Positions 2,493-63,644 of a DNA stretch of 64,000 nt are shown one piece after another. The position numbers and the translations under genes were made by a program. The notes under the pieces were generated by a model. That model saw nothing but the letters and a program-made list of their open reading frames with translations, was not told the DNA's origin and made no database searches. Position 1 is the stretch's first letter. Every line of letters begins with the position of its first letter. Source of the stretch: a virus; IMG/VR virus record IMGVR_UViG_3300018080_000014, positions 1 through 64,000 of that record; one strand, written 5' to 3'.

Positions 2493-3577
2493 TGATGGAT
2501 TATGAGCATCTCTACTTCGAGACAGGCATCCCGGCAAGGCCGGGATACAGAAAATATTTCCATGGATGGAAACGTGCATACCAGAATGCTATGTGGTGGG
2601 CAAAGCCGGGAAACGACGTGTACATCAGCGTCTACGGGTTTGCGGATCTTGTTTTCAACGGCACGAGCAAGGGATACAAGCGGACAACGCTTCCAGATTA
2701 CAAGACCGCGCAGGTTGACAAGATATTTCTCGATTTTGATTACTTCGTTCCCGGCACGAAAAAATTCAGGGAAGATGCGCAGCTCGACGCGCTTACCGTG
2801 GATGAATGGCTCCACAAGAAAGATATACGAAGGAGATGGGTGTTTTCTGGTGGTGGATACCACTGCCTGATACGCGCGGAAGGATCTGCTGATAGCGTGG
2901 AAAACGCACACTTCTTTCTCTATGCGATGCTCAAGGATACGCAAGGAATAGACGAGGTAACGTTTGATTTGGAACGCATGCGGAGGTTACCGGGATCGTA
3001 CAACAAGAAACGAAAAGCATATTGTATTCCAATAACAATAGAAGAATTGGAATTGCCATACAACGAAATAAAAAAAATAGCAAACAAGCCAAGAAGAGCA
3101 AACTACAACAAGTACACGAGTGGCAATGAAACATGGTTCATAGACGATGTGCAAAGCGTTCACAGGGAATCGAGGACCATTCTCGGATCGTATTCGAGGA
3201 GCGTTATACAGGGCGACACGCAGAAAGTCCTCGATTACTATGGCATAGATTTCGACACAGATTTTTGCCATGTCATGAAGCACATAATAACAAAAGATGC
3301 ACCAAACAATTTCGAGAGACTCCAGTTAATACGATACTTGAAGGATGTGGTCGGTGTACCGTTTGTTGATGTCATGGACAAACACAAGACTGTCATGAAC
3401 CTCCTGTATAACTTGTTACATGACAAGAAAAAAGCACGTCACTCGAACAACGCGCAAGAAGCGAAAACTATATACCAAAGAAACAAGAAATTCCACCCGT
3501 ACAAGCTCAAGAAGCTTGGTATATGTCCAGAAGATTGTAAAGAATGTTTGCGGAGGAGAACCATGAATGGAAATTGA
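2492..3577 (+). CDS. archaeo-eukaryotic primase, PriS catalytic domain fused to a PriL-C-like domain
   Basis: IFLDFD, FSGGGYH, RRLPGSYN catalytic motifs; C-terminal FCHVMKHI..NFERLQLIRYL..KLKKLGICPEDC resembles the PriL C-terminal domain. Confidence 0.8.
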   Translation: MMDYEHLYFETGIPARPGYRKYFHGWKRAYQNAMWWAKPGNDVYISVYGFADLVFNGTSKGYKRTTLPDYKTAQVDKIFLDFDYFVPGTKKFREDAQLDALTVDEWLHKKDIRRRWVFSGGGYHCLIRAEGSADSVENAHFFLYAMLKDTQGIDEVTFDLERMRRLPGSYNKKRKAYCIPITIEELELPYNEIKKIANKPRRANYNKYTSGNETWFIDDVQSVHRESRTILGSYSRSVIQGDTQKVLDYYGIDFDTDFCHVMKHIITKDAPNNFERLQLIRYLKDVVGVPFVDVMDKHKTVMNLLYNLLHDKKKARHSNNAQEAKTIYQRNKKFHPYKLKKLGICPEDCKECLRRRTMNGN

Positions 3578-6311: not shown

Positions 6312-6630
6312 TGATCTTGTTGGAAAATGGAAAGCAAAGAAAAGTAAATCAGTTCCTGTCGTGAAAGAAGGTCGCACGTGGCAGCAGATAGCCATGTGGT
6401 TCGTACGAGAAGTGAAACCAAAATTTGATGAATTTCCAGAAGGATTCGCAATGGCAGGCAAGACATTAAGAAACGCGGTAGGCGATCCAAACAATACACG
6501 ATTTAGGAGAATGTGCAAGGATAATGGTGTAAGAATCCTGAAAACAAAAAACCAAGATATATATACAATAACGAGATACAACATAGTGGAAGAGAGGTTG
6601 AAAAAAAGTGAAAATACTGGCATGTTCTGA
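6298..6630 (+). CDS. basic hypothetical protein
   Basis: GGAGGT RBS, overlaps neighbouring genes. Confidence 0.6.
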   Translation: MELFDDLVGKWKAKKSKSVPVVKEGRTWQQIAMWFVREVKPKFDEFPEGFAMAGKTLRNAVGDPNNTRFRRMCKDNGVRILKTKNQDIYTITRYNIVEERLKKSENTGMF

Positions 6631-7804
6631 CCCGCTCATGATAAATTCCAGCTATTCTCTCCAGATGCGATTGCTAATAAACAATCTGGATGCAGGATGG
6701 CATTATGTACAAAATGGTGTGCGGGTTGGGCAGAAAGAAGAAATACGAGACGAGAATGGTGAAATACTGGCAACGTTGTACCCCGGCGAAAGCAAGAGTG
6801 CATCGTACAGCCCGGACAAGGTATTCAAGATGGCTAATGAACTTGACCCTGACGTTGTATTCCTGTACGAAGATCCACAACACCTGTACAAGTACATGAC
6901 GTTCCAGAGAAAAACACCACACGCAGCAATATGCTGGTTCCCGTGGGACAACGATGAATGGAATGGTAGCATAGGAGCGTTCTTGACTTCATGCGAGGAT
7001 TCCGATTACGTGCCGATAGGAATATCACGGGCAACGCAAAAATTATGCCACGATAATGGGCATGATATAGGACAGATATATAACATCGTGGATGACGTGT
7101 TCAGACCATTGGATCCAACACTCGTCAACGCGGAGAAAGCATCCCTTCTTAGGCAGTTCGAATTGCCACGGGATAGAAAAATACTCCTGTACGTTGGAAG
7201 GCTTGCACCACGAAAGAACATAGAATCCCTGCTTTCCATGGCACAAAGCCTGAGAAGGAAACGGGAAGATTTCGTGCTGTTCATGCATTGCGATATAAAT
7301 GATCCGGGGTCCAGCTGCGACCTGCGAACAGAAATCATCACGCGTGGAATGGTTGAGTATGTCAGGGTAAACATCATAGAATGGGATAAAGGCGTGTCCT
7401 CGCAGGAACTCAACATGCTTTACAATTGCTGCGACGTGTACGTGTCGGCCAGTGGTGGTGAGGGATTCGGATTGCCGGTATGTGAAGCGGGTGCGTGTGG
7501 AAAAACATTCGTCGTACCTGATAACACGACTGGACCTGAATTCTCGCAGAACGGGAAGCACGGGTTACTTGCGCCAAATGGTGGGTATTACAGGGTGCTC
7601 GATTACATCAACCGCCCGTTCGTTGACCATGATGCCATGGCAGAGCAGGTGGATTACTTGTTGGACCACAAGAATCTTGCATGGAGGATGGGGGAATCAT
7701 TCAGGAAATGGGTGCAGGCGAATTGTTCCGTTAAAGTAGTGATGGAACAATTCAAGCACGAAATGGAGCAATTTGTACCACTGGAATGCACGGTGAAAAC
7801 ATAA
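6608..7804 (+). CDS. GT4 family glycosyltransferase
   Basis: LYVGRLAPRKN, LYNCCDVYVSASGGEGFGLPVCEAGACG (E-x7-E motif). Confidence 0.9.
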   Translation: MKILACSDPLMINSSYSLQMRLLINNLDAGWHYVQNGVRVGQKEEIRDENGEILATLYPGESKSASYSPDKVFKMANELDPDVVFLYEDPQHLYKYMTFQRKTPHAAICWFPWDNDEWNGSIGAFLTSCEDSDYVPIGISRATQKLCHDNGHDIGQIYNIVDDVFRPLDPTLVNAEKASLLRQFELPRDRKILLYVGRLAPRKNIESLLSMAQSLRRKREDFVLFMHCDINDPGSSCDLRTEIITRGMVEYVRVNIIEWDKGVSSQELNMLYNCCDVYVSASGGEGFGLPVCEAGACGKTFVVPDNTTGPEFSQNGKHGLLAPNGGYYRVLDYINRPFVDHDAMAEQVDYLLDHKNLAWRMGESFRKWVQANCSVKVVMEQFKHEMEQFVPLECTVKT

Positions 7805-8601
7805 TGGTAAAATACGTTAAACCGAGTTTCGAGATACTGGCAATGACGCATGGCGTTGCTGGTGCGTTTATAGGTAAATTGGAAGGGTATCCGATGATCC
7901 CTTTTAAATTAATAGAAGCTGCTGGAAGGACGTGCTACAAGAGCGAGGAAAAGATAAGCGAGAAATCTGCCGAGAAGTTCGTGGAGATGATAGTAGGACG
8001 TGGACACCTGAGCGTGATAGAGCACGTTAACGTCACGGTGAAGTTCGTGTGCAACCGCGGGTTCACCCACGAGCTGGTGCGGCACAGGCTAGCAGCTTAT
8101 TCCCAAGAAAGCACGAGGTACTGTGATTATGGTAGCGGGAAACATGGTAAGGAAATTACGGTGATAGACCAGCGTGCCACGATCATCAGGGAAATGCTTC
8201 CAAAGTTCGATTTCGAGGATTGGGGAATCGAAACCATAAGGGAATATCTCAAGAGAGAGGTCGGCATGACCGACATGAGATCCCTTCCTGTATGGAAAGA
8301 TGTGGATGTTGGACACGCATTCAGGGCCGTTGGTGACTGGATAACGGCGATGGAAAAAGCGGAGAGGTTGTACCTGAGCATGCGGGAATGGGGCGCACCT
8401 CCACAAGTGGCACGTGGTGTTCTTCCCATTGACGTGAAGACGGAGATAGTTATGACCGCAAACCTTCGAGAATGGGGCCACGTCTTCAAGATGCGGGCAA
8501 GCCCGAAAGCACATCCAAACATGCAAGAATTGATGTACCCGTTACTGGAGAGATTCAGGCAGTTATTTCCCGGCGTGTACGATAACTTGGAGGTATTCTG
8601 A
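7804..8601 (+). CDS. thyX: FAD-dependent thymidylate synthase
   Basis: AGRTCY, GHLSVIEH, THELVRHRLAAYSQESTRY signature, ARGVLP, NLREW. Confidence 0.95.
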   Translation: MVKYVKPSFEILAMTHGVAGAFIGKLEGYPMIPFKLIEAAGRTCYKSEEKISEKSAEKFVEMIVGRGHLSVIEHVNVTVKFVCNRGFTHELVRHRLAAYSQESTRYCDYGSGKHGKEITVIDQRATIIREMLPKFDFEDWGIETIREYLKREVGMTDMRSLPVWKDVDVGHAFRAVGDWITAMEKAERLYLSMREWGAPPQVARGVLPIDVKTEIVMTANLREWGHVFKMRASPKAHPNMQELMYPLLERFRQLFPGVYDNLEVF

Positions 8602-9175: not shown

Positions 9176-10237
9176 ATGGAAGTTGAATGGATAGGACATC
9201 TCGGTATACCAAGCGGGTACGGGACGGCATCGATGCATTATGTCGAGGAATTAAACAACATGGTGGATCTAAAGTGTACAACGCTCGATAGAAACATGTA
9301 CATGTACGGGTGGATGGAAAAACTGGCGGAGAAAAAGCTGGATAATCCCGTGAAGGTAACGCATGCAATACCGAACGAGATTCCAGATTCATTGGGCGAT
9401 GCATGTTACACGGTGTTCGAGTTCCACCAGGCACCTGAGGAATGGGAGCGGAAACTGGAAGACGTGCATTTCGTCTTCACCCCGAGCGAGTACTCCAAGG
9501 AGTCGCTGTCAACCGTGTGCGACAAGGACAAGATAAAGGTGATAAACCACGGCGTGTCTCCAGAATTCAACCCGTATGGTGGAAAGGTAGAATTTGCCAA
9601 ATCGAGAACAATCAAGTGGAAAAACTCGCTGGACATGCCATCGTTCAAGTTCCTCAGCGTGTTCGAGTGGGTGGAACGGAAATGCCCGGATCGCCTCATA
9701 CAAGCATTCTGCGAGGAGTTCGACGTGGAGGAGGACGTGTGCCTGATATTGAAAACCGATCACTATGCCACGCCAGTTCGCAGGATGATCAAGAAACTGG
9801 CAGGTAACAATAACGTGTACCATTTCAGGCAATTCGTCACTGATATATCCAACCTGTACAGGGGAGCGAATGCATATATTTCTGTTGGTCCTGAAGGGTG
9901 GGGCGAGACCCTCTCTGAGGCAATGGCATGCGGAATGCCGACGATTGGTCCAAACTGGAGTGGCACGACGGAATTCATGAATTCATTCAACTCGTTCCAG
10001 ATAGAGCCGGATGATGCCATACCAATAAAATACAACAAGATGGAAGCAATAGTAAAACCATGGTTCACGTACCAACCGCCCAAGATAGATAGCATACGAA
10101 GCAACATGCGAGCCGTGTACGAGGAAAATTGCGAGAATATCGATGCCATTACACGCAATGCCGTGCAGGACATGCAAGAATTTACTTGGGAGAAAGCCAC
10201 TTCCAAGATGGTAAAATACTTGGAGGAATTGAGATGA
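9176..10237 (+). CDS. GT4 family glycosyltransferase
   Basis: SGYG, FTPSEYSK, FKFLSVFEWVERK, EGWGETLSEAMACG. Confidence 0.9.
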   Translation: MEVEWIGHLGIPSGYGTASMHYVEELNNMVDLKCTTLDRNMYMYGWMEKLAEKKLDNPVKVTHAIPNEIPDSLGDACYTVFEFHQAPEEWERKLEDVHFVFTPSEYSKESLSTVCDKDKIKVINHGVSPEFNPYGGKVEFAKSRTIKWKNSLDMPSFKFLSVFEWVERKCPDRLIQAFCEEFDVEEDVCLILKTDHYATPVRRMIKKLAGNNNVYHFRQFVTDISNLYRGANAYISVGPEGWGETLSEAMACGMPTIGPNWSGTTEFMNSFNSFQIEPDDAIPIKYNKMEAIVKPWFTYQPPKIDSIRSNMRAVYEENCENIDAITRNAVQDMQEFTWEKATSKMVKYLEELR

Positions 10238-12372: not shown

Positions 12373-14460
12373 GTGGTTGTAAACGATTTTTATGCTCGCT
12401 CGGCAAACCCGTTTAACGATCATTATAAAGACTTACCCACGTTCTCAGAAGAGTATGCGAAGTTTCCAGAAAAAACGAAGGATCTCCTAGGACTTAACTT
12501 GATGGACCCCTTGGAGTTTCTCGCTAGGTATGACGTTGAAGACTTGCCGAGCGTGACTATTGACCCTAATGCGAATATTGGTAATAGAAAATCATCATCC
12601 AATAGAGTCGCAGAACTAGCCAAGCCTTTTTTAAAACTAAGAGGTTTCCAAGAATTGTACGAAGGAGGAATCAGGTTCTTTGGAGAGGAATTCTCCCTTG
12701 AACCAATAAAGAGACTCCGTGTTTATATCCACGATTCCACCAAAATGGATAGGCCATACTGCATAGGAGTATCGGCTATGGATATAATGAATGACGGGAG
12801 ACCATATGCTGATATAGAAGGAGTGCCTCCAAAGCATTTCGATGCTTTCATGGGACAAGTAGTGGAATACATCATGAATCTTTCCATGGAATTTGCAGGA
12901 GCAGTTGCCGTGTCTGATTGGGTTGTATGCATGGCATGGTATGCAGAGAAAGAGCGCATACCAATGACATGCGCAGAAAAATATGCAGAGCTGGAAGAGT
13001 ACGAGCGGCAATTATTCGTAAGGTTAATTGATATGTACCACGAAATGGATCCAGATTTGGCATCGATCAAGGAAATTGTTACTAAGCACAACCTGATAAG
13101 CATAGAGCAATCATGGCAGCATGCAGTGCATATTCTCCACAACAAGTACCGTATTGATGGAGATCCTCCATATACAAATATCTCTCTCAATTCTCCAGAA
13201 GTACTTATGGATATGTTTGAGCATTATGTATTTCCAGATGGGAAAAGCATAGAAGATATACTTCCAACAGTCATGAAAGTACAGGAGACAATTCTTGATT
13301 TCATGGCGAAAGGAGATCCGCAGCGGGGGGGACTGCAATACAAGTTTCCCGTGATGACGTGCAATTTTAAACCGTGGGACGTGGGGACCGAATGGTGGGA
13401 GAAGGTCGCCAGGGCTAATTGTACAGGTAAGTTCAACATCTGTCATGCCGAGATGTTCTCCTCGTGTTGCCGTCTCTTGTCAGACGTGAAGCGCATGCTC
13501 AAGTACAAGACGTATTCCAACGGATCAGGTGGAATAAAGGTGGGAAGCCATAGAGTAATAGCAAACAACTTGCCCGGTCTTGCGATTGATACCATTGAAG
13601 ATGTTGGACATGACCTCTCAGGCGAAGACGCCATGTACTGGTACTTGAAATACTTGGAGCCTAATATAGAACACGTGGCACGATACCTCTTTGTCCATAA
13701 GATATATACCATGATGCCGCGCATTGCTAACGGGTACTACACGTTCTTCTCGCAGTTCCGTGACATAGCAGGAAGACCCATGTATAGGAACGGGCAGCCA
13801 TTGGGACCATGGTTACACCCGAACATGCTCTTCTCGACAATCGGTGTACATGGATCACCAGAAGCAACGGACATATTGCTCGGAGGCTACCACACTGTAT
13901 TACAACCAGAAGGAGAACAGTTGCAGTACGACATGCTAAGGTTCATCGTTGACAAGGCAAACAAGCTGTCGGAAAAATACGAGCACGAGGGAATACACCT
14001 CTTTTTCAACGTCGAGCAGGTTCCCGCGGAATCAGCATCACATACCATGGCAGCATTTGATGGAAATGAATTGTATTCAAACCAGTTTGTACCGGCAGAT
14101 GCCGAGTGTGATATATGGGATCGTGTACGCATAGAAGGTAATTGTGCCAGCATATTGACTGGTGGATCGATGACGTTCCTCACGCTAGACAGGGAACTCA
14201 CGCCAGAACAATCGTTGAAGTTCCACAAGAGAGTCATGAAAGCAAGCAACATGAAGCTTAACAACTGGTGCATGAACCTCGGGTGGAAATGGTGCAGGAA
14301 ATGCAACGAGACGAAAGCGAGTTCGGAAATCATTTGCCCAAAATGTGGAGATAAGAGAGTTCCTTTCCAGAGGCCCGTGGGATACATGACCATGGAAGAC
14401 CACATAAACGAACCACGTGTAGTTAATGACTTAGAAAAGAGATACCGCAACGTGGTATAG
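12373..14460 (+). CDS. nrdD: anaerobic (class III) ribonucleoside-triphosphate reductase, no ATP cone
   Basis: YIHD, PYC, PPKHF, FAGAVA, FPVMTCN, SSCCRL, VGSHRV, NVEQVPAES, YSNQF, CxxC..CPKCG, RPVGY glycyl-radical loop. Confidence 0.92.
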   Translation: MVVNDFYARSANPFNDHYKDLPTFSEEYAKFPEKTKDLLGLNLMDPLEFLARYDVEDLPSVTIDPNANIGNRKSSSNRVAELAKPFLKLRGFQELYEGGIRFFGEEFSLEPIKRLRVYIHDSTKMDRPYCIGVSAMDIMNDGRPYADIEGVPPKHFDAFMGQVVEYIMNLSMEFAGAVAVSDWVVCMAWYAEKERIPMTCAEKYAELEEYERQLFVRLIDMYHEMDPDLASIKEIVTKHNLISIEQSWQHAVHILHNKYRIDGDPPYTNISLNSPEVLMDMFEHYVFPDGKSIEDILPTVMKVQETILDFMAKGDPQRGGLQYKFPVMTCNFKPWDVGTEWWEKVARANCTGKFNICHAEMFSSCCRLLSDVKRMLKYKTYSNGSGGIKVGSHRVIANNLPGLAIDTIEDVGHDLSGEDAMYWYLKYLEPNIEHVARYLFVHKIYTMMPRIANGYYTFFSQFRDIAGRPMYRNGQPLGPWLHPNMLFSTIGVHGSPEATDILLGGYHTVLQPEGEQLQYDMLRFIVDKANKLSEKYEHEGIHLFFNVEQVPAESASHTMAAFDGNELYSNQFVPADAECDIWDRVRIEGNCASILTGGSMTFLTLDRELTPEQSLKFHKRVMKASNMKLNNWCMNLGWKWCRKCNETKASSEIICPKCGDKRVPFQRPVGYMTMEDHINEPRVVNDLEKRYRNVV

Positions 14461-42873: not shown

Positions 42874-44364
42874 TCATTCCGCCTTTGTACTTGCTCGTTC
42901 CTGTCCACCATTGATTCCGCCATTCATGCTCATCTTGGTGGAATTCATTTCCTCGAATTTTGATTGGAGTTTCTTCGCGACTGCTGGATCCAGCTCATCC
43001 ATCACTGATCCCCATATGCCTTGAAGGATCTGGCGTGGTTCGTTCCAATCCTCGTAGAACATCTTATCAGCAGCGATGCCGACCGCTTCCACGAGATCTT
43101 TCACCTTCTCGATTATTGTTGGTGGAAATCTTATGGAAAATTCACTTCTCCGTGGTGTCCTCCCGTTTCTTGGCAGGAGGATGTTACGGAAGAAGGGTTC
43201 AAGCCTGTTCTTGTACTTGCCGATGAGGCCCTGTATGTACCTGACTTGTTGCTGATCGAGCGATTTGGATGTTGCCAGTTCTGTACCAGATGTAGAACGA
43301 AGTCCCATGGAACCCATGAGACCAAGCATTATTTGTTCGTCATACAGGTGGATAGCATCTATAAATATCTGTGAACTCTTTGCCGTGCTCTTGGAGAGTA
43401 TTTCCACCTTGTTGTAACCGGGAGTTGCCATGGCACCAAAGTTGCGCATGTTTATCAGGGATTCGAGCAGCATGTCACGTTCACGCTTGAACTCCTCGTC
43501 ATCTTCTGGCATGTACGAGTTGGGGTCGCCCGTGTACCCGACCTTTATTGGTGACCACTCGCGCTCCGCGAAATTTCTCATGTACCACCGCACCCACCGC
43601 TTGTCGGCCATGATGTCGAGCAATGCTGATACCGGGGGCCGCCGGAAGAACTCGAATTCCATCATGGTGTCAGGTTTATTTGGAACGACGATGTATTCCA
43701 TCTGTGTCTCGCCAGCATATAGCTGGAGAACGCTGCTGTTGATGTCGGTGATTGATTTTATCATCGGAGCACGTGATTTCACCCAGTTAAAGAATCCAGA
43801 TGACGTGTAAAACGTCTTGTTGAGCTTCCTTGCTGCTTGGACATAACATTCATATCCAGCTACTGGATCCTTTACTTTTGCTACGGTAAGTGGATCCAAT
43901 CTTGCTAAGTCGATGCCATACTCGTTATCATCGCTGTAGAGTATTCTCCATACGCTCTTGTTGTGTACATGGTTATCAACGAGGGTGTCAGATGCGAGAT
44001 CGTATATGTCTTGGTTGCTCTCGTTTATGCGCTCGCACCACCCTTCCACGATTTCCTTGTCCTCGGGATTGTCGCTGTTCACCTTTATCCCGGTTGAAAA
44101 TATCGTATATGCCAGTATATACGTCCACGATATTGCTATGGGTGACCTCCAGAAGCAAATCTCCCTGTTCGTGGCGGTATCGGGTATATCATTAATGTAC
44201 AGCTTGCGGAGCGTGTCGTTTATTGGTGACATCTTCAGTATTAAATCCAAGTATGTCACCAAAGATGGCGCTCCTGCCAGTACTGTTGGTTTTCTGTATA
44301 TCTTCGTGTTTAAGGAGAGACTCCTTCCAGGATTACTTCCACGCATCACTATCATGTTGTTCAC
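42874..44364 (-). CDS. portal protein
   Basis: 496 aa directly downstream of TerL; LARLDPLTV pattern. Confidence 0.75.
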   Translation of the reverse strand: MNNMIVMRGSNPGRSLSLNTKIYRKPTVLAGAPSLVTYLDLILKMSPINDTLRKLYINDIPDTATNREICFWRSPIAISWTYILAYTIFSTGIKVNSDNPEDKEIVEGWCERINESNQDIYDLASDTLVDNHVHNKSVWRILYSDDNEYGIDLARLDPLTVAKVKDPVAGYECYVQAARKLNKTFYTSSGFFNWVKSRAPMIKSITDINSSVLQLYAGETQMEYIVVPNKPDTMMEFEFFRRPPVSALLDIMADKRWVRWYMRNFAEREWSPIKVGYTGDPNSYMPEDDEEFKRERDMLLESLINMRNFGAMATPGYNKVEILSKSTAKSSQIFIDAIHLYDEQIMLGLMGSMGLRSTSGTELATSKSLDQQQVRYIQGLIGKYKNRLEPFFRNILLPRNGRTPRRSEFSIRFPPTIIEKVKDLVEAVGIAADKMFYEDWNEPRQILQGIWGSVMDELDPAVAKKLQSKFEEMNSTKMSMNGGINGGQERASTKAE

Positions 44365-46190
44365 GCAAGTCTTGTTGCCAGAGATACAAATGGCTTCTTT
44401 CTACACGCCCAGTACGCCAGCGCATGGGCGATTACCCTGTCATCGTGTGCCGATTGGGTCCCGTACTTTGGTTTCTTGCTTTCCGTTATGTCGTAACCGA
44501 ACTTGAGCATTTCATCCCAAAAGTCCCTTACCTCTGGAAGATCATACTGTGGTATGGCGATGTCGCCTCTTTTGGTATATCCTTCCACGAGATTGTCCAC
44601 GAGATCAATCTTGGATTGCGTGTCGAAGATGAATCCCTTGTGTCTCTTCTTGGAATACAACCCGGTGCTCTTGTCCGGCTTGTTATCGAATATTTTCGTT
44701 CGCAGGCGCTCCCCGGGTGGCATCCTTACCTCGATCTCGTCTATCCTGCCGTTCGGTTTCGCTACCTGTATTACTATGCGACCAAGCCTTTTAAGTATTT
44801 GCAGATCATTCCACATATCATCCATGACAGGATCTCCTACTCCCGTGGCATCAGGGACAATCCATACTGGATTAAACAATGCGACTACTTGTAAAAACTT
44901 TGGTCGTATGTCAACGTAATCGAGATTGCTATATTGTCCACCAATGGTGAACATGTAATCCCACAACGCTTTTTCTTGTTTCCAGTCATAATGCATCACG
45001 TTAAGGGCGCTAGCATCATGCGTCTTGCCAAAATCCATGCCTATGACGTAGTTCTTGATATTCTTTCTCGGGCTTGGCACGTTGTTGAGACCCATCATCA
45101 CCGCGCGCTCCAGTAGTTCCATGCTGAACACGGCGGAACCTTCCTTGATGATTTCGCCAAGAATCTCCTGCCTTGCTTTTGGAGTATTGCCGGCAAGCCA
45201 CAACTCGTACTCGATTTCTTCACGCGTCTTCCACGAGCAGGTCCACGGATCGACTGGAACTACAGTGATAGCCCCGACACCATACATCCACCTGTTCCCG
45301 CCGCAGACGGGACAGTTTGGTAACTTCATTGGTAGAGCATGTGTGCCAAACTTGGTGATGAACTGGCGCATGAGTTGTGATTCCTGCTTGAATGTTGCTT
45401 GGCATACTTTGCCGTTCACGACGTTTGCGCATACTATCGGGCGAGTTTCCATGCCCATGGTATAGTGCCTGATGAATTCCCCACGATAACCAGCAGGGGT
45501 AGAAAGTAGAATCCAGCGTTTTCCGACACGCCTGAATGTTTTCAGCACGACATCAGTCATGATCTCCTCATCTATCCACGCGGCTTCGTCCACCAGCCCG
45601 AGGTGCAGTGAACGGCCACGGACGCCTCTCGACGCAGGGTAAGCAGTGGCGGTGACCCGGCCGCCAGATTTTATTATTTTTGTAACATTGCTGGACTCTA
45701 CCATGTAGCCAAATGGTGAGTTTTCGACAAAGATTTTTATCTTGTCCATTATTTCCTTGGCACCATCCTCGTTGATGGAGAACGTGCCAATGCGGTATCG
45801 CTTGTTCATGAAGATGAACGCGCATGCTGCTGCTATTGCCACGGCAGTGGTCTTGCCAAACTGGCGAGGCCATATCATCACGATCTCTTTCGGGCGGTCA
45901 CCTTCTGGTATTACCCACGGGTACTGGTAAATATTGTACCCGAATTGTATGGAACGGATTGCCGCTTTCTGTGATTCTTCAAGGACGAGGGGCATGTCCT
46001 CGTCTTCCGGGTTTGGCAGCCAGTATTCTGCAAAAGATGCCCAGTCGAACAACGATTGTTGGAACTTTATGAATTCTGTTTCATCCTTTTCCGGGTCTAT
46101 GCCCATCGTCTCGAATTGTTCCCATAAGAACTTGGTGTCACATCCAGATGATATGTCTCCTCCACCCATTCCAGCAGGCACTGCGCTCAT
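44361..46190 (-). CDS. terL: terminase large subunit
   Basis: WPRQFGKT, RGRS, LVDEA, LSTP; nuclease motifs GMDFGKTHD, DATGVG, HDDRVIA. Confidence 0.95.
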   Translation of the reverse strand: MSAVPAGMGGGDISSGCDTKFLWEQFETMGIDPEKDETEFIKFQQSLFDWASFAEYWLPNPEDEDMPLVLEESQKAAIRSIQFGYNIYQYPWVIPEGDRPKEIVMIWPRQFGKTTAVAIAAACAFIFMNKRYRIGTFSINEDGAKEIMDKIKIFVENSPFGYMVESSNVTKIIKSGGRVTATAYPASRGVRGRSLHLGLVDEAAWIDEEIMTDVVLKTFRRVGKRWILLSTPAGYRGEFIRHYTMGMETRPIVCANVVNGKVCQATFKQESQLMRQFITKFGTHALPMKLPNCPVCGGNRWMYGVGAITVVPVDPWTCSWKTREEIEYELWLAGNTPKARQEILGEIIKEGSAVFSMELLERAVMMGLNNVPSPRKNIKNYVIGMDFGKTHDASALNVMHYDWKQEKALWDYMFTIGGQYSNLDYVDIRPKFLQVVALFNPVWIVPDATGVGDPVMDDMWNDLQILKRLGRIVIQVAKPNGRIDEIEVRMPPGERLRTKIFDNKPDKSTGLYSKKRHKGFIFDTQSKIDLVDNLVEGYTKRGDIAIPQYDLPEVRDFWDEMLKFGYDITESKKPKYGTQSAHDDRVIAHALAYWACRKKPFVSLATRLA

Positions 46191-46743: not shown

Positions 46744-47715
46744 CTACACCATGGTAATGTTTGCCGTGTCATCGTATACCCATTCGTAAATATCCGATCG
46801 TATGCGGAACTTCGTCTGCCCTGCCTGAGAAGGGAGATTGCCACTATAAGAGCCCGTGTTTGGAACTGATGTGTGGTGGGGAATCCACTCTCCTTCTCTC
46901 AGGTACAGGATGCTGACGGTGGAATTGTCGAGCCAGCTTGCAGCTATGGAGTTGATGTGGAGATTTTGGACACCACCACCCGATGCGAGGAAGGAGATGT
47001 ACTTGAGGTTGACTGCCGATTGTGTATATATGCCGGAATACACTTGCTCGTCGTTGATCTTGATGGTGACGTTTCCTGCTGGTTCGTCAAAGATGACCTT
47101 GTACGTGACGCCGTGTGGCATGCCACCAACATCTTTTTGCCAGACGGGGTTAGACCCGGCTCCGAAGACACTGTACCGGATGTAATTGCCCGAGAAGGAG
47201 AACCACCCGTAGTGGGCAATGCCTGGTGTTGGTAGCACGTAATCGGTGAATATGACGGTGAACAGGCCCGTGTGGTCCGATTGGAAATCGATGTCCATCG
47301 TGACAGTGGAGTCTTCCTCGAAATCCGATTGTGATGGAAATGCGAATACTTTTTCCACGTCCAGGGCACTGTATCGCGCGAACCACCCGTAGCCGTTGTA
47401 GAAGACCGCACCTGCGGTGGTATTGTCGGATTGATCGTTTGGTCCTGCTGCCCAACTTGGCGAGTTCTCCAGCGGGGTGTTGTTATCGTATCCTTCAAAG
47501 TCTTCCGTGACGCCCGATCCTATTCCAACCGATTGCCATGCCCAAGAGAAGGGTATACCAGTAGAGTACTGCTTGGGCTCGTTGGTAGGTGGGTTGGTGA
47601 ATTCGACCCAGCGCACGGTTTGTTCGGGGATACCATTTTCACGATCCACGGCGAACTTGCGAAGGAAAGCTGCTGAATGTTTGAATGGTTGCGCGAATAT
47701 TTTCGGAATGGTCAC
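46744..47715 (-). CDS. lectin-like beta-sandwich protein (virion-associated candidate)
   Basis: EDFEGY..W start, aromatic/G/S/N-rich. Confidence 0.55.
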   Translation of the reverse strand: MTIPKIFAQPFKHSAAFLRKFAVDRENGIPEQTVRWVEFTNPPTNEPKQYSTGIPFSWAWQSVGIGSGVTEDFEGYDNNTPLENSPSWAAGPNDQSDNTTAGAVFYNGYGWFARYSALDVEKVFAFPSQSDFEEDSTVTMDIDFQSDHTGLFTVIFTDYVLPTPGIAHYGWFSFSGNYIRYSVFGAGSNPVWQKDVGGMPHGVTYKVIFDEPAGNVTIKINDEQVYSGIYTQSAVNLKYISFLASGGGVQNLHINSIAASWLDNSTVSILYLREGEWIPHHTSVPNTGSYSGNLPSQAGQTKFRIRSDIYEWVYDDTANITMV

Positions 47716-48053
47716 TCACCAACGTAGCATTCGACTTCGACACTTGCCGGATCGGTATCGGCAGTGTGGACACCAACCAGCGAGTCAACCTTGCAGCGCG
47801 CTCCCCATGGCAGTTGCGACGTTATTGTTCTGCCGAGCGATGGGTTGTTTGGCATGTTGTTCAGGGACACGCGAATCGAGGAATCCGTTACCACCTCCAC
47901 TTCCACAGTCACGATCTGCTTGTCGCCAAAATACGCGGAGGCTTCCGCGAGGAGATCAACGGGCGTCGAGGATACCGAGTAGCGGGCGAAATGATATGAT
48001 TTGCCGTCAAGGGGGATTGAGGCGTTCTTGACGGGATGGACGAGATTTGCCAT
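47712..48053 (-). CDS. small beta-rich protein, first gene of the late operon
   Basis: 113 aa, probably leaderless, about 25 nt below a TATA box. Confidence 0.6.
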   Translation of the reverse strand: MANLVHPVKNASIPLDGKSYHFARYSVSSTPVDLLAEASAYFGDKQIVTVEVEVVTDSSIRVSLNNMPNNPSLGRTITSQLPWGARCKVDSLVGVHTADTDPASVEVECYVGE

Positions 48054-48073
48054 GGGTGGATACACGCCGGCCG

Positions 48074-48092
48074 CCTATTTAAACTTTTCGAC
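48074..48092 (-). promoter_or_regulatory. late operon BRE-TATA promoter
   Basis: Minus strand GTCGAAAAGTTTAAATAGG. Confidence 0.7.
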
Positions 48093-48193
48093 ACTTATCC
48101 ACGGCACGCGCGGGTTGGGGGGGGACTAACATGCCCTGGCGTCAAAAAGTAATTCTTTTGTCTAAATTTCGCGGAAAAAGAAAAAGAGTGAGT

Positions 48194-48493
48194 TTAGTGA
48201 AAGATCGGGAGACGCTTGTTAACACAAGTCTCAAGATCACAAAAAGAATCGTTAGAATTGTCGTCAGTGAGGAGTATGTAGTAGTACGAGTAGATCTCAT
48301 CAAATCTGAAGCTCTGACAGTGATTCTTGTAGAGATCTAGGATAGATTCGACAGAAGCTGTAGCTCCTCGGGCGTTGTTAATACGTTCGTTATCAACGCG
48401 GATTACAATGACGTCGTACTCGCTATCGTAGTGCGTTTTCACGACTTGACTATGAAAGTGCAAATTGTAGAAGTTTTTGTGTTCGGGATGCAT
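48194..48493 (-). CDS. hypothetical protein, Trp-free (pre-early candidate)
   Basis: AGGTGA RBS, 99 aa, followed by an oligo-T tract. Confidence 0.65.
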   Translation of the reverse strand: MHPEHKNFYNLHFHSQVVKTHYDSEYDVIVIRVDNERINNARGATASVESILDLYKNHCQSFRFDEIYSYYYILLTDDNSNDSFCDLETCVNKRLPIFH

Positions 48494-48504
48494 ATTTTTC
48501 ACCT

Positions 48505-48540
48505 TTTTTGAAAAAAAATAAAAAATGTGAGCGAAAGCTC
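48505..48540 (-). terminator. hairpin plus oligo-T terminator
   Basis: Minus strand GAGC-TTTC-GCTC hairpin followed by TTTTTATTTTTTTT. Confidence 0.5.
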
Positions 48541-49465
48541 ACTGATACTCAGCTAGCTGAGCGAGGTACTTCTCGTGATACTCAGCTTTGTGAGAAATAA
48601 TGTCCTTGACGAGGTTCTCGTAGTACGAGAAGCCTCCGCGCTTCAGAGCCTTTTGATCAAGCTTCTTGATTTTCTCCTCGATCTTCTTTGAACCTAGCTC
48701 GCTCAAAATAGCGACACGAGCGGGTTTCTGAGCCTCGTCGAAGAGAAATCGTGTCGATTTCATAACGTTCAATAACGCGGCGATCCCGTTCATTTTTTTC
48801 TCTTTGAGGTAGAAATCTGCAAAGAGATAGAAGAGCTCGTTAAAATCATCACCTCCCGCTAGGAACGGGTTGATCGAGGCTAACCCGTCGCTTGAAGCGA
48901 GCTTCTTTTTCTGTTCCTCTAATTTCGCTATGTTATCTTTGATTTTCTCGCTCGGCTTTTTCTCCGCGAGCTTCTCCTGCATCTTCTTGAGAAGATCTGT
49001 ATCTTTTTTCTCAGCTACCTCAATTGTGAGCTGCATTAGCTCACTGAGGTGTTTCTCATCTAATTTCTCAGCTTTCTTTAAAGAATCTTGAAGCTTCTTG
49101 ATTTTCTCGTCGATCTTGTCGATCTTCTTCGCGGTTTCCTCGTCATGTGCAACTAGGACGAGCTTCACAGCTCTAAAGAGGAGCCTTTCGTAGTCAGTCA
49201 CTATTGTGACGTACCCCTTCTTTAAAGCGGGTTCTACGTGAGCTAGCGCTAGTATTTCAAGCGTTGAAGCTACAGAATCCGCGATTTCTTTCTTGTCCTC
49301 GCTCGTGAAAAGCTTGACAAGATTCTCGTTGAACACGTTGATGTTCGATATGTCAACGTGATTCTTCTTTGAATCAAGAGCGCTCTTGAAGTCCTCAGAG
49401 CTGATCTTGTATAGATCTTCAACGTGATTGAAGATCTTTTTCGTCTTTTTGTTTTTTTTCGACAT
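48539..49465 (-). CDS. K/E-rich coiled-coil protein, Trp- and Cys-free (pre-early candidate)
   Basis: GAGGT RBS before ATG 49465; 308 aa. Confidence 0.75.
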   Translation of the reverse strand: MSKKNKKTKKIFNHVEDLYKISSEDFKSALDSKKNHVDISNINVFNENLVKLFTSEDKKEIADSVASTLEILALAHVEPALKKGYVTIVTDYERLLFRAVKLVLVAHDEETAKKIDKIDEKIKKLQDSLKKAEKLDEKHLSELMQLTIEVAEKKDTDLLKKMQEKLAEKKPSEKIKDNIAKLEEQKKKLASSDGLASINPFLAGGDDFNELFYLFADFYLKEKKMNGIAALLNVMKSTRFLFDEAQKPARVAILSELGSKKIEEKIKKLDQKALKRGGFSYYENLVKDIISHKAEYHEKYLAQLAEYQ

Positions 49466-49591
49466 TTCAGTTGTAACCTCTTGTTTTTGTGAGGTATGAG
49501 CGAGATCTCTTGTTTCCTCTAAGTACAGACGTTCCCGAATGACTCCGAGGCGATTTCTAGCGTTCCCGCTCATACGTACAAGTAGTAGAGA

Positions 49592-49610
49592 CGACTTATA
49601 AACCTTGGCT
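49592..49610 (-). promoter_or_regulatory. TATA promoter for the island operon
   Basis: Minus strand GCCAAGGTTTATAAGTC, followed about 20 nt later by a paired leader (49494-49575). Confidence 0.6.
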
Positions 49611-49721
49611 AGCGTTTCCGCGGTTCTAGCGAACGTACACGAGTGTTTTAGACATAGGCGTACAAGAGATTAAAGAGGAGCCTCTAAAACGTGCACCAGA
49701 TGCATTTAGAGGCGCCCTGGC

Positions 49722-49796
49722 GAGGAGAATGAAGCCAGCTATGAGATCTTCAAATACGAGATCTCAGAGGAGAATGACGCCCGTGATGAGATCTTC
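49722..49796. repeat. two 30-bp imperfect direct repeats
   Basis: GAGGAGAATGAnGCCnnnnATGAGATCTTC at 49722 and 49767. Confidence 0.75.
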
Positions 49797-49843
49797 GTTC
49801 TAGCTCGCCCGTTTAACGAGGTCTCAGAATGACTGATCTCGGA

Positions 49844-50000
49844 CTTATTTTTCATAAGCTGGTGACTTATGAGATATAAGCCTATATTTCATAAGTGGAT
49901 CGCTTATGTCAAATAAGCTTATACTGGATAAGTAAAAATCGATTCCGGCTTTTGAGATATAAGCTTATATCGGATAAGCGATCAGCTTATACTGGATAAG
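49844..50000. repeat. array of eight CTTAT-N5-ATAAG palindromes
   Basis: Starts 49844, 49866, 49881, 49903, 49918, 49949, 49964, 49986 (two with one mismatch). Confidence 0.9.
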
Positions 50001-50036
50001 CGTAACATATCGACCGGTATCGATATGAAAATCCAT

Positions 50037-50410
50037 GCCGGAGCGCCATGGCCGGAATGTTGAGCGCCAGCATATCCTATGCCGGATCGCTTGGATCCAT
50101 TCCTGTATCCAGTGCCCACGCCGGAGAGTGGGATATGCACATGCCGGAACCCACGTGCCGGTATCATTTTCCAGCATCCTCCTTCCCGTGCCGGCCCATG
50201 GCATCTCCCGTGCCAATGCACGATCCGGCAGGGTGTTACTACACCGGCATACCCCACCACCATATCCCACGCACGCCAATTCTTTTGCCGGCCAGTCAAT
50301 GTGTGCGCGCCGGATCGAAAAAAATGAGTTTGGACATAAACAGCCGGCTGGCTTTCAGGAGTTTCATGCCAAACAGGCTACTCCGTTAAAACCATTGGCG
50401 GCCCCGGCCA
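50037..50410. repeat. GCCGG/CCGGC-dense non-coding block
   Basis: 13 CCGG sites counted, all reading GCCGG on at least one strand. Confidence 0.8.
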
Positions 50411-50731
50411 TGGCTTTAATAAAACAACACATCCAGCAAGCGCTCCAGTAAACAGCCTAAACAGCGCCAGAAACAAATGAAACGCATGTTCGGACGCTTG
50501 CTCCGGGGTCCCCACCTAACAACTTAGGTAAACAGCCGGCACGAAACTTAGGGGATTTCCGAAGCCGTTTCCCGGGATCTCGGTATAACCCTGCCGGGTG
50601 GGGACGCGGATCTGGCCCAGCTACTAGGATCATGTTCGGAGGTCAGCACGAAATGCCATTAATAAATAATTAAATAAAGGATATTTTAAACCTTCTCCGA
50701 AGTAGTTATACTGGATAAGTCAGATCACATG

Positions 50732-50752
50732 CACCAGCGTAAAGTTTAAATG
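50732..50752 (+). promoter_or_regulatory. early BRE-TATA promoter
   Basis: CACCAGCGTAAAGTTTAAATG; motif repeated four more times downstream. Confidence 0.75.
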
Positions 50753-50837
50753 TAATGCTTCATTCCAGTATATCATGAGAAAAGGCTACGCTTGTAGGAT
50801 CGCCGTTTTCTCTAAACCAGTTTAAAGATGATGATTC

Positions 50838-51581
50838 ATGCCAACGCTAGATGAAATAGTCAATGCGATGTTGGAAATCAACAATTCCGACGACAAGGAG
50901 AAAATCCTCCGCCAGTACACTCAACAACTGATGGCGGAGGCTCAATCCAAAGCGAAATCAAAAACCTCCCGGAAACGGCCGCGAAGATCCAAGACCGTTC
51001 CCTACAATCCAGTCACGGACGACCCGTTCCCGAAAGTACTCGAGGACGAGGAAGTCCGGCCGTACATCGTCCGCACCACCGTCACGATAAACGGCAAGAA
51101 GAAGCTCGTCGAAACGGCGGACGAATGGGGTGAATCCAGATTACCCTGTCCGTTCTGCGAGGAGTTGCACACGGAGTACGATCGGGTGCAAATACATGGC
51201 TTGAAATACCGCTGTCGGCGCTGCGGGTATACAGCCGCGCTCCTCACCGCCCCCTGTGGTTGTGTCGGGTTGGAGAAATTCGACATGACCAGAAAAATAA
51301 TCCATAACGAGGAGAAAGTTGTCCTCGTCGGCCAGAGAACGGGATACTGCATTATCCAGCACCATGTTCCACCCGGCCTCGGGCTCGACCGGTATCACAA
51401 CGAGGATAACCCACCAGACATCACTGGCAAGCCGTACCGCGAGAAGTCCAACTTTCTCGTGCCGAACGAGCTGCCGAAAATCATGTTCTTCGCACCGTTC
51501 AATTCCTCCCGCAGGAATCTCCGCGTGCAACCAGTCTTGTTATTCAACAATCCAAAACAACATTCCAACGTGATCCTATAA
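50838..51581 (+). CDS. Zn-ribbon protein
   Basis: CPFC..CRRCG..CGC. Confidence 0.7.
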   Translation: MPTLDEIVNAMLEINNSDDKEKILRQYTQQLMAEAQSKAKSKTSRKRPRRSKTVPYNPVTDDPFPKVLEDEEVRPYIVRTTVTINGKKKLVETADEWGESRLPCPFCEELHTEYDRVQIHGLKYRCRRCGYTAALLTAPCGCVGLEKFDMTRKIIHNEEKVVLVGQRTGYCIIQHHVPPGLGLDRYHNEDNPPDITGKPYREKSNFLVPNELPKIMFFAPFNSSRRNLRVQPVLLFNNPKQHSNVIL

Positions 51582-61940: not shown

Positions 61941-62812
61941 TGACACTGGCAGTAATAGGATTGGATGGATTTGACATGACATTCGACCACAGGTTTCTCA
62001 CGGTCATGCCATTTGTCAAATCCTACATAGACAAGTGGTGGACGGAAATCCGATGTGATACAGCACCACATTCCGCTCCATCATGGTTCACCATTTTCAC
62101 CGGCGTCCCGCAATATTTGTGGCCACTTGATGGTAAAGTGTCGGCGGTTGTAGACGTGGATAATGAGTACCATAATGTCCACGGGTTCTACCAATTCTCG
62201 GAAGGTGAGAACTGGGCCACCGAAAAACGCGAAGGCGATAAGCCGTGGAACCCGAAGACCATACAGGAGGAAGCCGACCGTGTTGGTGGTTTCGTGTGGC
62301 AAAAACACGATGGCATCGCCCAAGGGGTGATGTGTATACAGCCGCACTATAGCTACCGGTGCGTGAGAGACAAGCGGGCATATTACGATGGCAAGTATGA
62401 TTCTGCTGAAAAGGCCAAGGAGTACCTGGATAATTTCATGGCCACCTTCGATAGAACCATTTCCCTCTCAGGCGTACCGGAATTATGGTGTGGCGTGTTC
62501 CAGATTGTCGATCAGGTGCATCATCACTACAACAGCATGCCGTTCTACGAGCACTCGGTAACCATGCGAGAGGTGGATAGATGCGTGCGACAGATTGCCG
62601 AACATTTTGATGACGTGATCCTGCTTTCCGACCACGGTGTACCGGATGAACCAATAGAATATACATGGGCGAGGATACGGCTCCACTCGCACCGACCACG
62701 AGCTTTCATCACGCATAATGGAGCGCGTGATCAAATAAATGGCACGTTGGACATAGTACCACTCATAGATGGATTGCTTGATTCTGGAAGCGAAGCTAGC
62801 GATCCAAGCTAG
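61940..62812 (+). CDS. alkaline phosphatase superfamily (nucleotide pyrophosphatase/phosphodiesterase-like) protein
   Basis: VIGLDG, PHSAPSWFTIFTG, DQVHH, ILLSDHG, late His. Confidence 0.85.
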   Translation: MTLAVIGLDGFDMTFDHRFLTVMPFVKSYIDKWWTEIRCDTAPHSAPSWFTIFTGVPQYLWPLDGKVSAVVDVDNEYHNVHGFYQFSEGENWATEKREGDKPWNPKTIQEEADRVGGFVWQKHDGIAQGVMCIQPHYSYRCVRDKRAYYDGKYDSAEKAKEYLDNFMATFDRTISLSGVPELWCGVFQIVDQVHHHYNSMPFYEHSVTMREVDRCVRQIAEHFDDVILLSDHGVPDEPIEYTWARIRLHSHRPRAFITHNGARDQINGTLDIVPLIDGLLDSGSEASDPS

Positions 62813-63644
62813 AACCTCCGTCACGAGCAACCTCGCGGAGGCCTTGGCATTATTGGTTGCCAGCTCACGCTACGATTTCTCCATATGTGGCGTGAAATCC
62901 AACCTATATGTTCTTATTGTTGGAGACAGTTCCATAACACACAAGAGCACTGCCACGAGATACGCATTGAGCATGTGCTCGAACGTCAATCCAATTGGAA
63001 CTGCCGCCGACTTCAGGAAACAAATGACCGAAAGGAGATTGGAATACTACGTGTCGAAGAAAATAATGCTCCATGATGACGAGTTTGCGATGACCATGAA
63101 GAACATGCGATCTGGATCGCAGGGATACAAGATCATGAAGGACCTGCTCAATTCCGCATACGATGGAGTGGTAAAGTTTCCCGGCAATAACAGGCTGCGT
63201 CCAAAGACCGTGATGGACGTGAAAGTTGGATTTGTCGGGTCCACGACAATTGAGCATTTCAAGCGGCAGGCAGATCCTGTATTCCTCGAAGGTGGCCTGA
63301 TGAAGCGAATGTTGGTAGTGATACCAGGCAAGGCCAGATACAGGTCAAGACGCCATTGTGTCCAAGATTCTACACCACAATTTCGCATGGAGCGGCGTGG
63401 TAAAATGGACATGGACAACGAAGCATGGGAAGAGCACGACGCATTCATGGAAAATGTATACAACACAATGGATAGTTCCATGGCAGGTATATGGGCACGT
63501 GCCGAATCACAAATCTTCAAGATTGGAGCATTGCATGCTATCGATACGGGAAAGCAGGAAGTAGATCTCAGAAGCTGGACATATGCCAAGAACGTGGTAA
63601 ATGAATCCGTGACGGCACATGCCGTCTTGAAGCAATTAGTCTGA
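62769..63644 (+). CDS. DUF3987-like AAA+ ATPase/helicase domain protein
   Basis: NLYVLIVGDSSITHKSTA, DDEF, LNSAYDG, GSTT, GGLMKRML. Confidence 0.7.
   Translation: MDCLILEAKLAIQARTSVTSNLAEALALLVASSRYDFSICGVKSNLYVLIVGDSSITHKSTATRYALSMCSNVNPIGTAADFRKQMTERRLEYYVSKKIMLHDDEFAMTMKNMRSGSQGYKIMKDLLNSAYDGVVKFPGNNRLRPKTVMDVKVGFVGSTTIEHFKRQADPVFLEGGLMKRMLVVIPGKARYRSRRHCVQDSTPQFRMERRGKMDMDNEAWEEHDAFMENVYNTMDSSMAGIWARAESQIFKIGALHAIDTGKQEVDLRSWTYAKNVVNESVTAHAVLKQLV

Follow-up and report, generated by a model that had tools for sequence, protein, structure and literature searches.

The element described here lies in a virus contig, IMG/VR record IMGVR_UViG_3300018080_000014, of which the first 64,000 nt constitute the stretch analysed (the window). 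A 2.8-kb divergent gap, which separates the late and early operons, holds a two-gene cassette, and the DNA of this cassette contains no CCA and no TGG on either strand. Both open reading frames (ORFs) are on the minus strand, and the unit is ordered as a TATA-like box, ORF344, a hairpin, ORF102, and a series of T-runs:

48140 to 49605, both strands: the void, with no CCA/TGG and a single VGCA/TGCB (TGCG at 48432)
49595 to 49602, minus strand: TATA-like box TTTATAAG, with its centre roughly 26 nt before the ATG at 49573
48539 to 49573, minus strand: ORF344, an orphan rich in Lys, Glu, and Leu, predicted to be all-helical and lacking Trp and Cys
48527 to 48542, minus strand: terminator-like hairpin (6 bp with a 4-nt loop, then a T-run) directly after the ORF344 stop
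48194 to 48502, minus strand: ORF102, an orphan rich in Asn, Asp, Tyr, and His
48185-48181, 48179-48175, and 48148-48144, minus strand: three runs of five T after the ORF102 stop, the likely transcript end

The void coincides, to within a few bases, with this one predicted promoter-to-terminator unit. On the upstream side the first minus-strand CCA (49606-49608) occurs 3 nt before the TATA-like box, which could drive a leaderless ORF344 mRNA, and on the downstream side the void ends (48140) 5 nt past the last T-run. ORF344 has an alternative start at 49465, preceded by a GAGGT Shine-Dalgarno sequence, which yields the 308-aa form found in public gene calls; similarly, a 99-aa form of ORF102 could begin at the ATG at 48493, with GGTGA as the Shine-Dalgarno sequence upstream. 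All eight Tyr codons of ORF102 are TAC.

An original prediction, made by a model from the letters and a list of ORFs, had described 48140-49605 as free of CCA and TGG, and the computed counts make the case stronger than was claimed. The window contains 2935 CCA/TGG sites, or 45.9 per kb; the longest gap between sites, bounded by the TGGs at 48137 and 49606, is 1469 bp, and the runner-up is 139 bp. The complete genome of 88,646 bp has 4040 sites, with longest gaps of 1469, 247, and 139 bp, and the void is 66.9 times the mean spacing. Among the other 31 trinucleotide pairs the highest ratio of gap to mean spacing is 20.0, for GCA/TGC, and this gap is located inside the same island. For comparison, no trinucleotide exceeds a ratio of 18.3 in a set of 53 further loci of viral or metagenomic origin (661 kb, some duplicated), where the median is 11.9.

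The island is 1466 bp long with a G+C content of 42.4%. A first-order Markov model of the island itself predicts 14.2 CCA/TGG sites and base composition predicts 31.9, which compare with the few dozen originally estimated; at the backbone rate 67.9 would be expected, and none is observed. The depletion also holds in the codon-preserving shuffle that had been proposed as a check: synonymous-codon shuffles of ORF344 contain a mean of 11.9 sites and never reach zero (0 of 5000), while those of ORF102 have a mean of 4.5 and reach zero in 0.24%. When both proteins are rewritten in the codon usage of the virus, 32.7 +/- 4.5 sites are expected. Scored per ORF, depletion is confined to the two cassette genes (z -9.4 and -3.8), the next lowest scores, -1.8 and -1.2, belonging to the first two early genes. 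Based on these gap and expectation figures, a chance origin of the void is excluded. The other word counts of the original prediction stand as well, in that CCGG, GGCC, TGCC/GGCA, and GACC/GGTC are all absent from the island while CCT, CCG, CCC, GATC (15 copies), and GTTC (10 copies) all occur, and neither encoded protein contains Trp.

A chimeric misassembly, named beforehand as an outcome that would undo the finding, is not indicated by the contigs. A separate assembly of the probable source run consists of a single 88,553-bp contig that spans both island edges, and a contig from another run (48540-49854) spans the right edge; the left edge is spanned in the probable source run only. No variant letters are reported inside the island. 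Three further runs, X2, X3, and X4, leave parts of the stretch uncovered and have no contig over position 48128, a gap from which we draw nothing; X2 and X3 have identical contig limits and are possibly not independent of each other. The X2 and X3 contigs over ORF344 and its upstream spacer measure 1315 and 919 bp, longer than the flanking contigs, and have depths of 7.0 and 7.9 compared to 2.2-4.2 in the flanks, although these are single values per contig from runs that may be the same data. A 2431-bp JGI contig holds exactly the two cassette ORFs.

CCA/TGG is not the only word family affected. GCA/TGC occurs 13 times in the island, compared to 30.9 expected from the island Markov model and 54.7 at the backbone rate, and 12 of the 13 derive from six copies of the palindrome TGCA, the remaining one being a TGCG. 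Counted as VGCA/TGCB, there is one occurrence where about 23 are expected. On the sense strand of the two genes, backbone codon usage predicts 16.6 CCA, 15.8 TGG, 16.2 VGCA, 7.2 TGCB, and 6.0 TGCA; the numbers observed are 0, 0, 1, 0, and 6, respectively. Two word families are thus purged in both orientations, and TGCA is left at expectation, three of its six copies being forced by Met-Gln or Met-His pairs.

The purge went beyond synonymous sites and altered the composition of the proteins. Relative to the backbone, the cassette is depleted in Trp (0 vs 1.9%), Pro (1.35 vs 4.35%), Gly (2.5 vs 6.5%), Cys (0.7 vs 1.6%, with all codons TGT), and Met (1.35 vs 2.9%). Because the loss is strand-symmetric, extends to codon junctions, and is paid for in amino acids, it points to selection on the duplex DNA and not on the mRNA or on translation.

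This bears directly on an explanation at the RNA level, in which the cassette transcript would be immune to a sequence-specific endoribonuclease by lacking its cleavage words, much as ACA-less and GCU-less mRNAs escape MazF and MqsR. The match of the void to a transcribed unit and the 3-nt length of the words would suit such an enzyme. However, a reader of single-stranded RNA predicts the loss of one orientation only, whereas both are lost from the sense strand, and no toxin-like family was found with Pfam, PHROGs, or PADLOC; we consider this explanation very unlikely.

It is still harder to credit that the words were erased by mutation, for example by a context-specific cytosine deaminase or similar activity that turned SCA into STA. 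The expected products are indeed raised, with 45 CTA/TAG compared to 28.2 in an unconstrained model and 77 TCA/TGA compared to 52.3, but both excesses fall below 2 standard deviations once the synonymous purge is modelled. Moreover, loss of TGG by G-to-A change would generate stop codons, yet a frame of 344 codons is open, and the sharp edges, the completeness of the loss, and the sparing of TGCA also argue against erasure, which we regard as highly improbable.

Outside the cassette the bias is reversed. In 64 backbone genes compared to synonymous shuffles, CCA/TGG occurs 3074 times where 2629 +/- 27 are expected, and VGCA/TGCB occurs 2014 times where 1553 +/- 25 are expected (z +16.2 and +15.7 for the two purged families); in a ranking of the 32 trinucleotide pairs by over-representation, CCA and GCA take the first two places. 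TGCA, which is present at normal frequency in the cassette, is slightly low in the backbone (z -2.9). A general bias in CA/TG junctions accounts for part of the backbone excess, as CA/TG overall is 1.11-fold over-represented and ATG, CAC, and CAA are likewise in excess, but the match to the words purged from the cassette, down to the behaviour of TGCA, is still striking and leaves room for a viral function of these words outside the cassette. The backbone gene at 65077-65622 has the lowest CCA/TGG density (16.5 per kb), carries the second-longest gap (247 bp, 65194-65441), and has the most deviant codon usage (0.72 per codon); it falls outside the 12 most depleted ORFs after allowing for amino-acid content.

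The first 124 nt of the 88,646-bp contig are repeated at its end, indicating a circular assembly, and the runs that contain the sequence are sediment and seawater metagenomes. The virus is a tailed, probably archaeal one, roughly 88.5 kb in size, from marine sediment. In a Pfam scan of 106 ORFs, for which 25 of the 27 families found were listed, the products include a large terminase, a portal, and a baseplate J protein; a family B DNA polymerase, two AAA+ clamp-loader-like proteins, and RNase H; an anaerobic ribonucleotide reductase and its activase; and one Dam-like and two N6/N4 DNA methyltransferases, whose closest solved relatives are of the DpnA and CcrM types. ThyX (7786-8601) is flanked by GT1 glycosyltransferases (6608-7804 and 9176-10237) and is near the anaerobic ribonucleotide reductase (12373-14460), an arrangement that could serve either DNA base hypermodification or virion glycosylation. 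Two ORFs (2435-3577 and 62769-63644) have weak PHROG matches to primases (E 2.9e-6 and 2.3e-7), with no Pfam family and no relative of solved structure.

An archaeal host, which the original prediction also proposed, is likely given the clamp-loader matches and a recurrent promoter-like box. The clamp loader is closest to the RFC small-subunit chains 2chq and 1iqp (4e-39 to 2.5e-38), which we take to be from Archaeoglobus and Pyrococcus, the table having given molecule names only; matches to eukaryotic RFC (7e-30), T4 gp44 (1.7e-10), and bacterial gamma (3e-4) are weaker. The TTTAAATA-type box (RTTTAAATA) occurs in six copies compared to 1.1 expected, mostly ahead of genes or operons. A genome scan with ThyX gave a single 45%-identical match on a 4-kb contig of a Coxiellaceae metagenome-assembled genome, which we did not take as the host. 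Relatives of the large terminase are at best 26-33% identical over approximately 130-200 residues and those of PolB at best 23-24%, and no close relative of the virus was found in any collection searched.

Given this gene content, the words could be targets of the virus itself: its own word-directed machinery would mark the backbone, and the cassette would be kept free of the words in order to stay unmodified, unprimed, or unsilenced, and thereby readable at a time when the remaining genome is not; the original prediction had offered a version of this, with modification by viral enzymes, as its alternative. Candidates for such machinery are the methyltransferases, the ThyX/glycosyltransferase genes, a word-specific primase, or a DNA-coating silencer. 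The inverse bias argues for this possibility, because the two trinucleotides most over-represented in the backbone are the two that are purged from the cassette, and even the exception agrees, TGCA being low in the former and normal in the latter. Confinement of the void to a transcription unit is also consistent with it, as are the three methyltransferases, the ThyX gene between two glycosyltransferase genes, and the two weak primase matches; T7-type and pRN1-type primases start at fixed trinucleotides. However, the backbone excess may be merely the general CA/TG junction bias, the specificity of the methyltransferases is not derivable from their relatives, and the neighbouring early operon is rich in the words, which would make the cassette the sole unit in need of exemption. 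This explanation is possible but unlikely.

The sequence around the cassette contains several further features:

48100 to 48125, strand not assigned: tract of 81% G+C that holds a G8 run (48117-48124), the longest G/C homopolymer of the genome
48076 to 48084, minus strand: GTTTAAATA box that precedes the late operon (structural and terminase genes)
49844 to 50000, strand not assigned: array of eight CTTAT-N5-ATAAG-type palindromes, a putative operator or origin
50037 to 50600, strand not assigned: block of non-coding DNA in which (A)TGCCGGA units recur, rich in the words absent from the cassette

The G-rich tract, a candidate cos or terminus site, separates the end of the cassette from the late promoter; the G8 run is at the island edge, with both cassette ORFs oriented towards it, as originally described. 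The late operon that follows the GTTTAAATA box encodes two unknown genes, a 183-aa ORF, the large terminase (44361-46190), and the portal (42874-44364), so that the terminase genes and the cassette lie on opposite sides of the tract. On its other side the cassette adjoins a repeat-rich non-coding block of 1.26 kb, beyond which the early operon starts at 50838. The part of this block at 50037-50600 has the top local density of CCA/TGG, at 8-11 per 150 bp.

GC skew tracks gene direction, peaks at 16.7 kb, and has a broad minimum at 52-58 kb; the island is not set apart by it. AGATCT is concentrated here, with 9 of the 32 genome copies within 48292-49789 (8 of 21 for GAGATCT/AGATCTC), three of which are in the promoter-proximal spacer (49744, 49759, and 49789); GATC occurs at 10.2 per kb in the same interval compared to 4.45 elsewhere. 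Since a Dam-like methyltransferase is among the viral gene products, the cassette might be under methylation-dependent control.

A cassette of this kind might also have been imported as a moron from a donor that avoids the words genome-wide, in which case the void would be a donor signature with no present selection. Like a moron, it is self-contained between resident operons, with its own promoter-like box and terminator-like ends. Its dinucleotide signature also deviates more than that of any other part of the genome, with a delta* of 0.315 compared to 0.167 for the best window outside it. Protein composition alone accounts for a delta* of 0.18, and a simulated synonymous purge raises this to 0.24 +/- 0.02 (maximum 0.295 in 300 runs), leaving a residual signature to which AGCT (22 vs 10.6) and GATC (15 vs 6.7) contribute, along with over-use of GCT, GAG, and AGC codons. 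In addition, CTAG, a word that the backbone avoids (z -6.3), is kept in the cassette in eight copies, an excess.

Both genes are orphans, which is consistent with import as well. Pfam, PHROGs, and PADLOC returned no match for either ORF, and a word-indexed search of 5.8 billion proteins together with phmmer against 1.84 billion representatives recovered self-matches only. ORF344 had no match in IMG/VR or JGI contigs, the cassette DNA had none among phage records, and nothing near gathering scores was found with Rfam in 47500-51000. The Atlas provided no usable feature match (own model predicted local distance difference test (pLDDT) score, 0.49; best structural template modelling score, 0.41), and AlphaFold2 without an alignment gave a pLDDT of 40.5 for ORF102 and 43.7 for ORF344. 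No inverted or direct repeats of the kind that form mobile-element ends were found flanking the cassette.

Other properties of the cassette look more like those of a resident. The G+C content of the island is 42% compared to 53% in the flanks, but this is due to amino-acid composition: the cassette proteins written in backbone codons reach 42.3%, compared to 43.4% for the real genes, and we therefore reject foreign origin as judged by G+C. The codon deviation of ORF344 beyond the purge, 0.245 per codon, falls within the spread seen in backbone genes (median 0.147, maximum 0.72). Moreover, the cassette shares a virus-specific avoidance. CTTA/TAAG is the most under-represented 4-mer of the 64 backbone genes, at 0.46 of the synonymous-shuffle expectation, and occurs once in the cassette compared to 9.8 expected, a count reached in none of 300 simulations. 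This 4-mer is the half-site of the palindromes at 49844-50000, which suggests genome-wide avoidance of stray binding sites for a protein that reads them. Because the avoidance is shared and the codon usage is within the native range, the cassette has lived with the regulatory system of the virus and is co-adapted with it. Furthermore, neither a donor nor a relative is present in the representative proteins, IMG/VR, or JGI contigs, and import merely shifts the cause of the word avoidance to some donor. A recent foreign origin is thus not favoured, although an older import is possible; as an account of the void, import is quite unlikely.

The account that we prefer, at a probability of roughly 40%, is that the cassette is DNA that functions while unprotected against a factor that reads 3-4-nt words in duplex DNA, and that it acts early. 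A loss that is complete, local, and strand-symmetric suggests that duplex DNA is read by a factor whose effect is of consequence at the cassette alone. We infer that this factor belongs to a defence, which could be a nuclease or nickase of the host or of a rival element, a modification-sensing defence, or a CRISPR system that depends on a protospacer-adjacent motif (PAM). The cassette would be expressed early, probably for counter-defence or takeover, and would correspond to the leading regions, devoid of sites, of T5-like and T7-like phages.

In addition, the cassette may be the first-entering end of the genome, with the G-rich tract at 48100-48125 being cos-like. The layout, in which the G-rich tract has the terminase on its far side and a repeat-rich block follows the cassette, fits a leading region. 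In lambda, the DNA on the terminase side is packaged first, and the opposite side of cos enters the cell first; by this analogy, the cassette, on the non-terminase side of the tract, would be on the first-entering side. One property of leading regions is found here, the absence of words common elsewhere (CCA/TGG, 0 vs 67.9; VGCA/TGCB, 1 vs about 23). The sequence also contains the TATA-like box, the T-runs, and the adjacent 1.26-kb block, which might play the parts of the own promoter and the repeat-rich stop region of a leader with pre-early genes.

The known systems closest to such an arrangement are as follows. T5 and BF23 are restricted only when sites fall in the first-step-transfer region (PMC10644984), and restriction, CRISPR, and Ssp act only via sites in this first-entering segment (PMC10644984). 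Genes in the segment have promoters of their own and mostly lack a known function, and a long non-coding region filled with direct and inverted repeats borders it (PMC10644984). The cassette is similar in being a site-free two-gene unit followed by a 1.26-kb repeat-rich non-coding block. However, the T5 segment comprises approximately 8% of the genome inside a terminal repeat of approximately 10 kb, whereas the cassette is 1.47 kb and known from sequence; the missing sites in T5 are words of 4-13 bp, of which few are expected, whereas the cassette has lost approximately 56 sites of 3-4 nt and had its proteins reshaped; and the host of the present virus is probably an archaeon.

Murciaviruses (Autographiviridae) escape a type I system when its motif is absent from the first-injected region only, the motif remaining elsewhere in the genome (PMC12455610). 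This is the same local pattern, but there it involves one bipartite motif and was shown experimentally, whereas the cassette lacks two families of 3-4-nt words and is judged from its sequence.

Readers of words as short as these are known. SspABCD-SspE uses the 3-nt modification word CCA (5'-CpsCA-3'), read in DNA (PMC9646914), and the chloroviruses carry enzymes that read degenerate 2-3-nt duplex words, such as Nt.CviPII (^CCD) and Nt.CviQII (R^AG) (PMC3017599). The nickase/methyltransferase pairs of chloroviruses belong to viruses of eukaryotic algae, unlike this probably archaeal virus, and no nickase of this type was recognised among the 25 of 27 Pfam families listed for the 106 ORFs. Short CRISPR words are under-represented in phages, but the reported PAM depletion is genome-wide and partial (PMC4246573, PMC12174588), whereas that of the cassette is complete, affects 1.7% of the genome, and is reversed elsewhere; a PAM would also not be expected to spare TGCA. 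CCA-directed SspABCD or a CCW PAM, both raised in the original prediction, thus fail as the sole cause, as neither accounts for the equal loss of VGCA/TGCB with TGCA spared.

Several observations weigh against an unprotected, early-acting cassette. The assembly is circular, with a 124-nt overlap, all four runs are represented by contigs, and the genes are transcribed towards the supposed end, so their transcription could not pull the genome in. The large terminase has a T4-type N-domain, and large terminases of this type often go with headful packaging, which has no fixed end. Neither protein resembles any defence or anti-defence family in Pfam, PHROGs, or PADLOC, and we know of no system that reads VGCA while sparing TGCA. 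Enrichment of the backbone in the purged words is unexpected if the reader is a host nuclease, unless the backbone is otherwise protected, and the retained CTAG copies are likewise unfavourable, as they show that the cassette is not in all respects the most shielded portion of the genome. Archaeal Dnd-Pbe marks GATC (PMC6459918), in which the cassette, with 15 copies, is rich. Finally, SspABCD modifies 14% of host CCA sites, and whether CCA is needed for nicking of the target is left open in that report (PMC9646914).

In kind, the void is an instance of local recognition-site avoidance; it is unusual in the shortness of the words, in the approximately 56 sites removed, in the reshaping of the proteins, in the agreement of its boundaries with a transcription unit, and in the reversed bias of the backbone. 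We found no description of a comparable void in a non-exhaustive survey of the literature on Ssp, T5 leaders, frequent-cutting nickases, and PAM depletion. Local loss of defence sites from first-acting DNA has so far been known from a few bacterial phages and a handful of long sites.

A broader reading, which we consider doubtful but possible, is that the virus writes its genome in two dialects, with the words accumulated over 87 kb and forbidden in a 1.47-kb unmarked window. If this is correct, the words would be the handle of a genome-wide process (modification, priming, silencing, or a defence neutralised by the backbone), and the cassette would act first or independently of it. No leader-like device of this sort would have been seen before in an archaeal virus, nor one based on 3-nt words. 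Should the virus instead be avoiding its own machinery, the void would reveal a motif-directed system by which it marks its genome. The signature itself, a trinucleotide gap far more than 20 times the mean spacing, is usable to search for early or counter-defence cassettes in uncultured viruses, and could also reveal the words read by defence or modification systems. For the present virus, it implies a strong reader of very short DNA words in its anaerobic sediment host, which is probably an archaeon.

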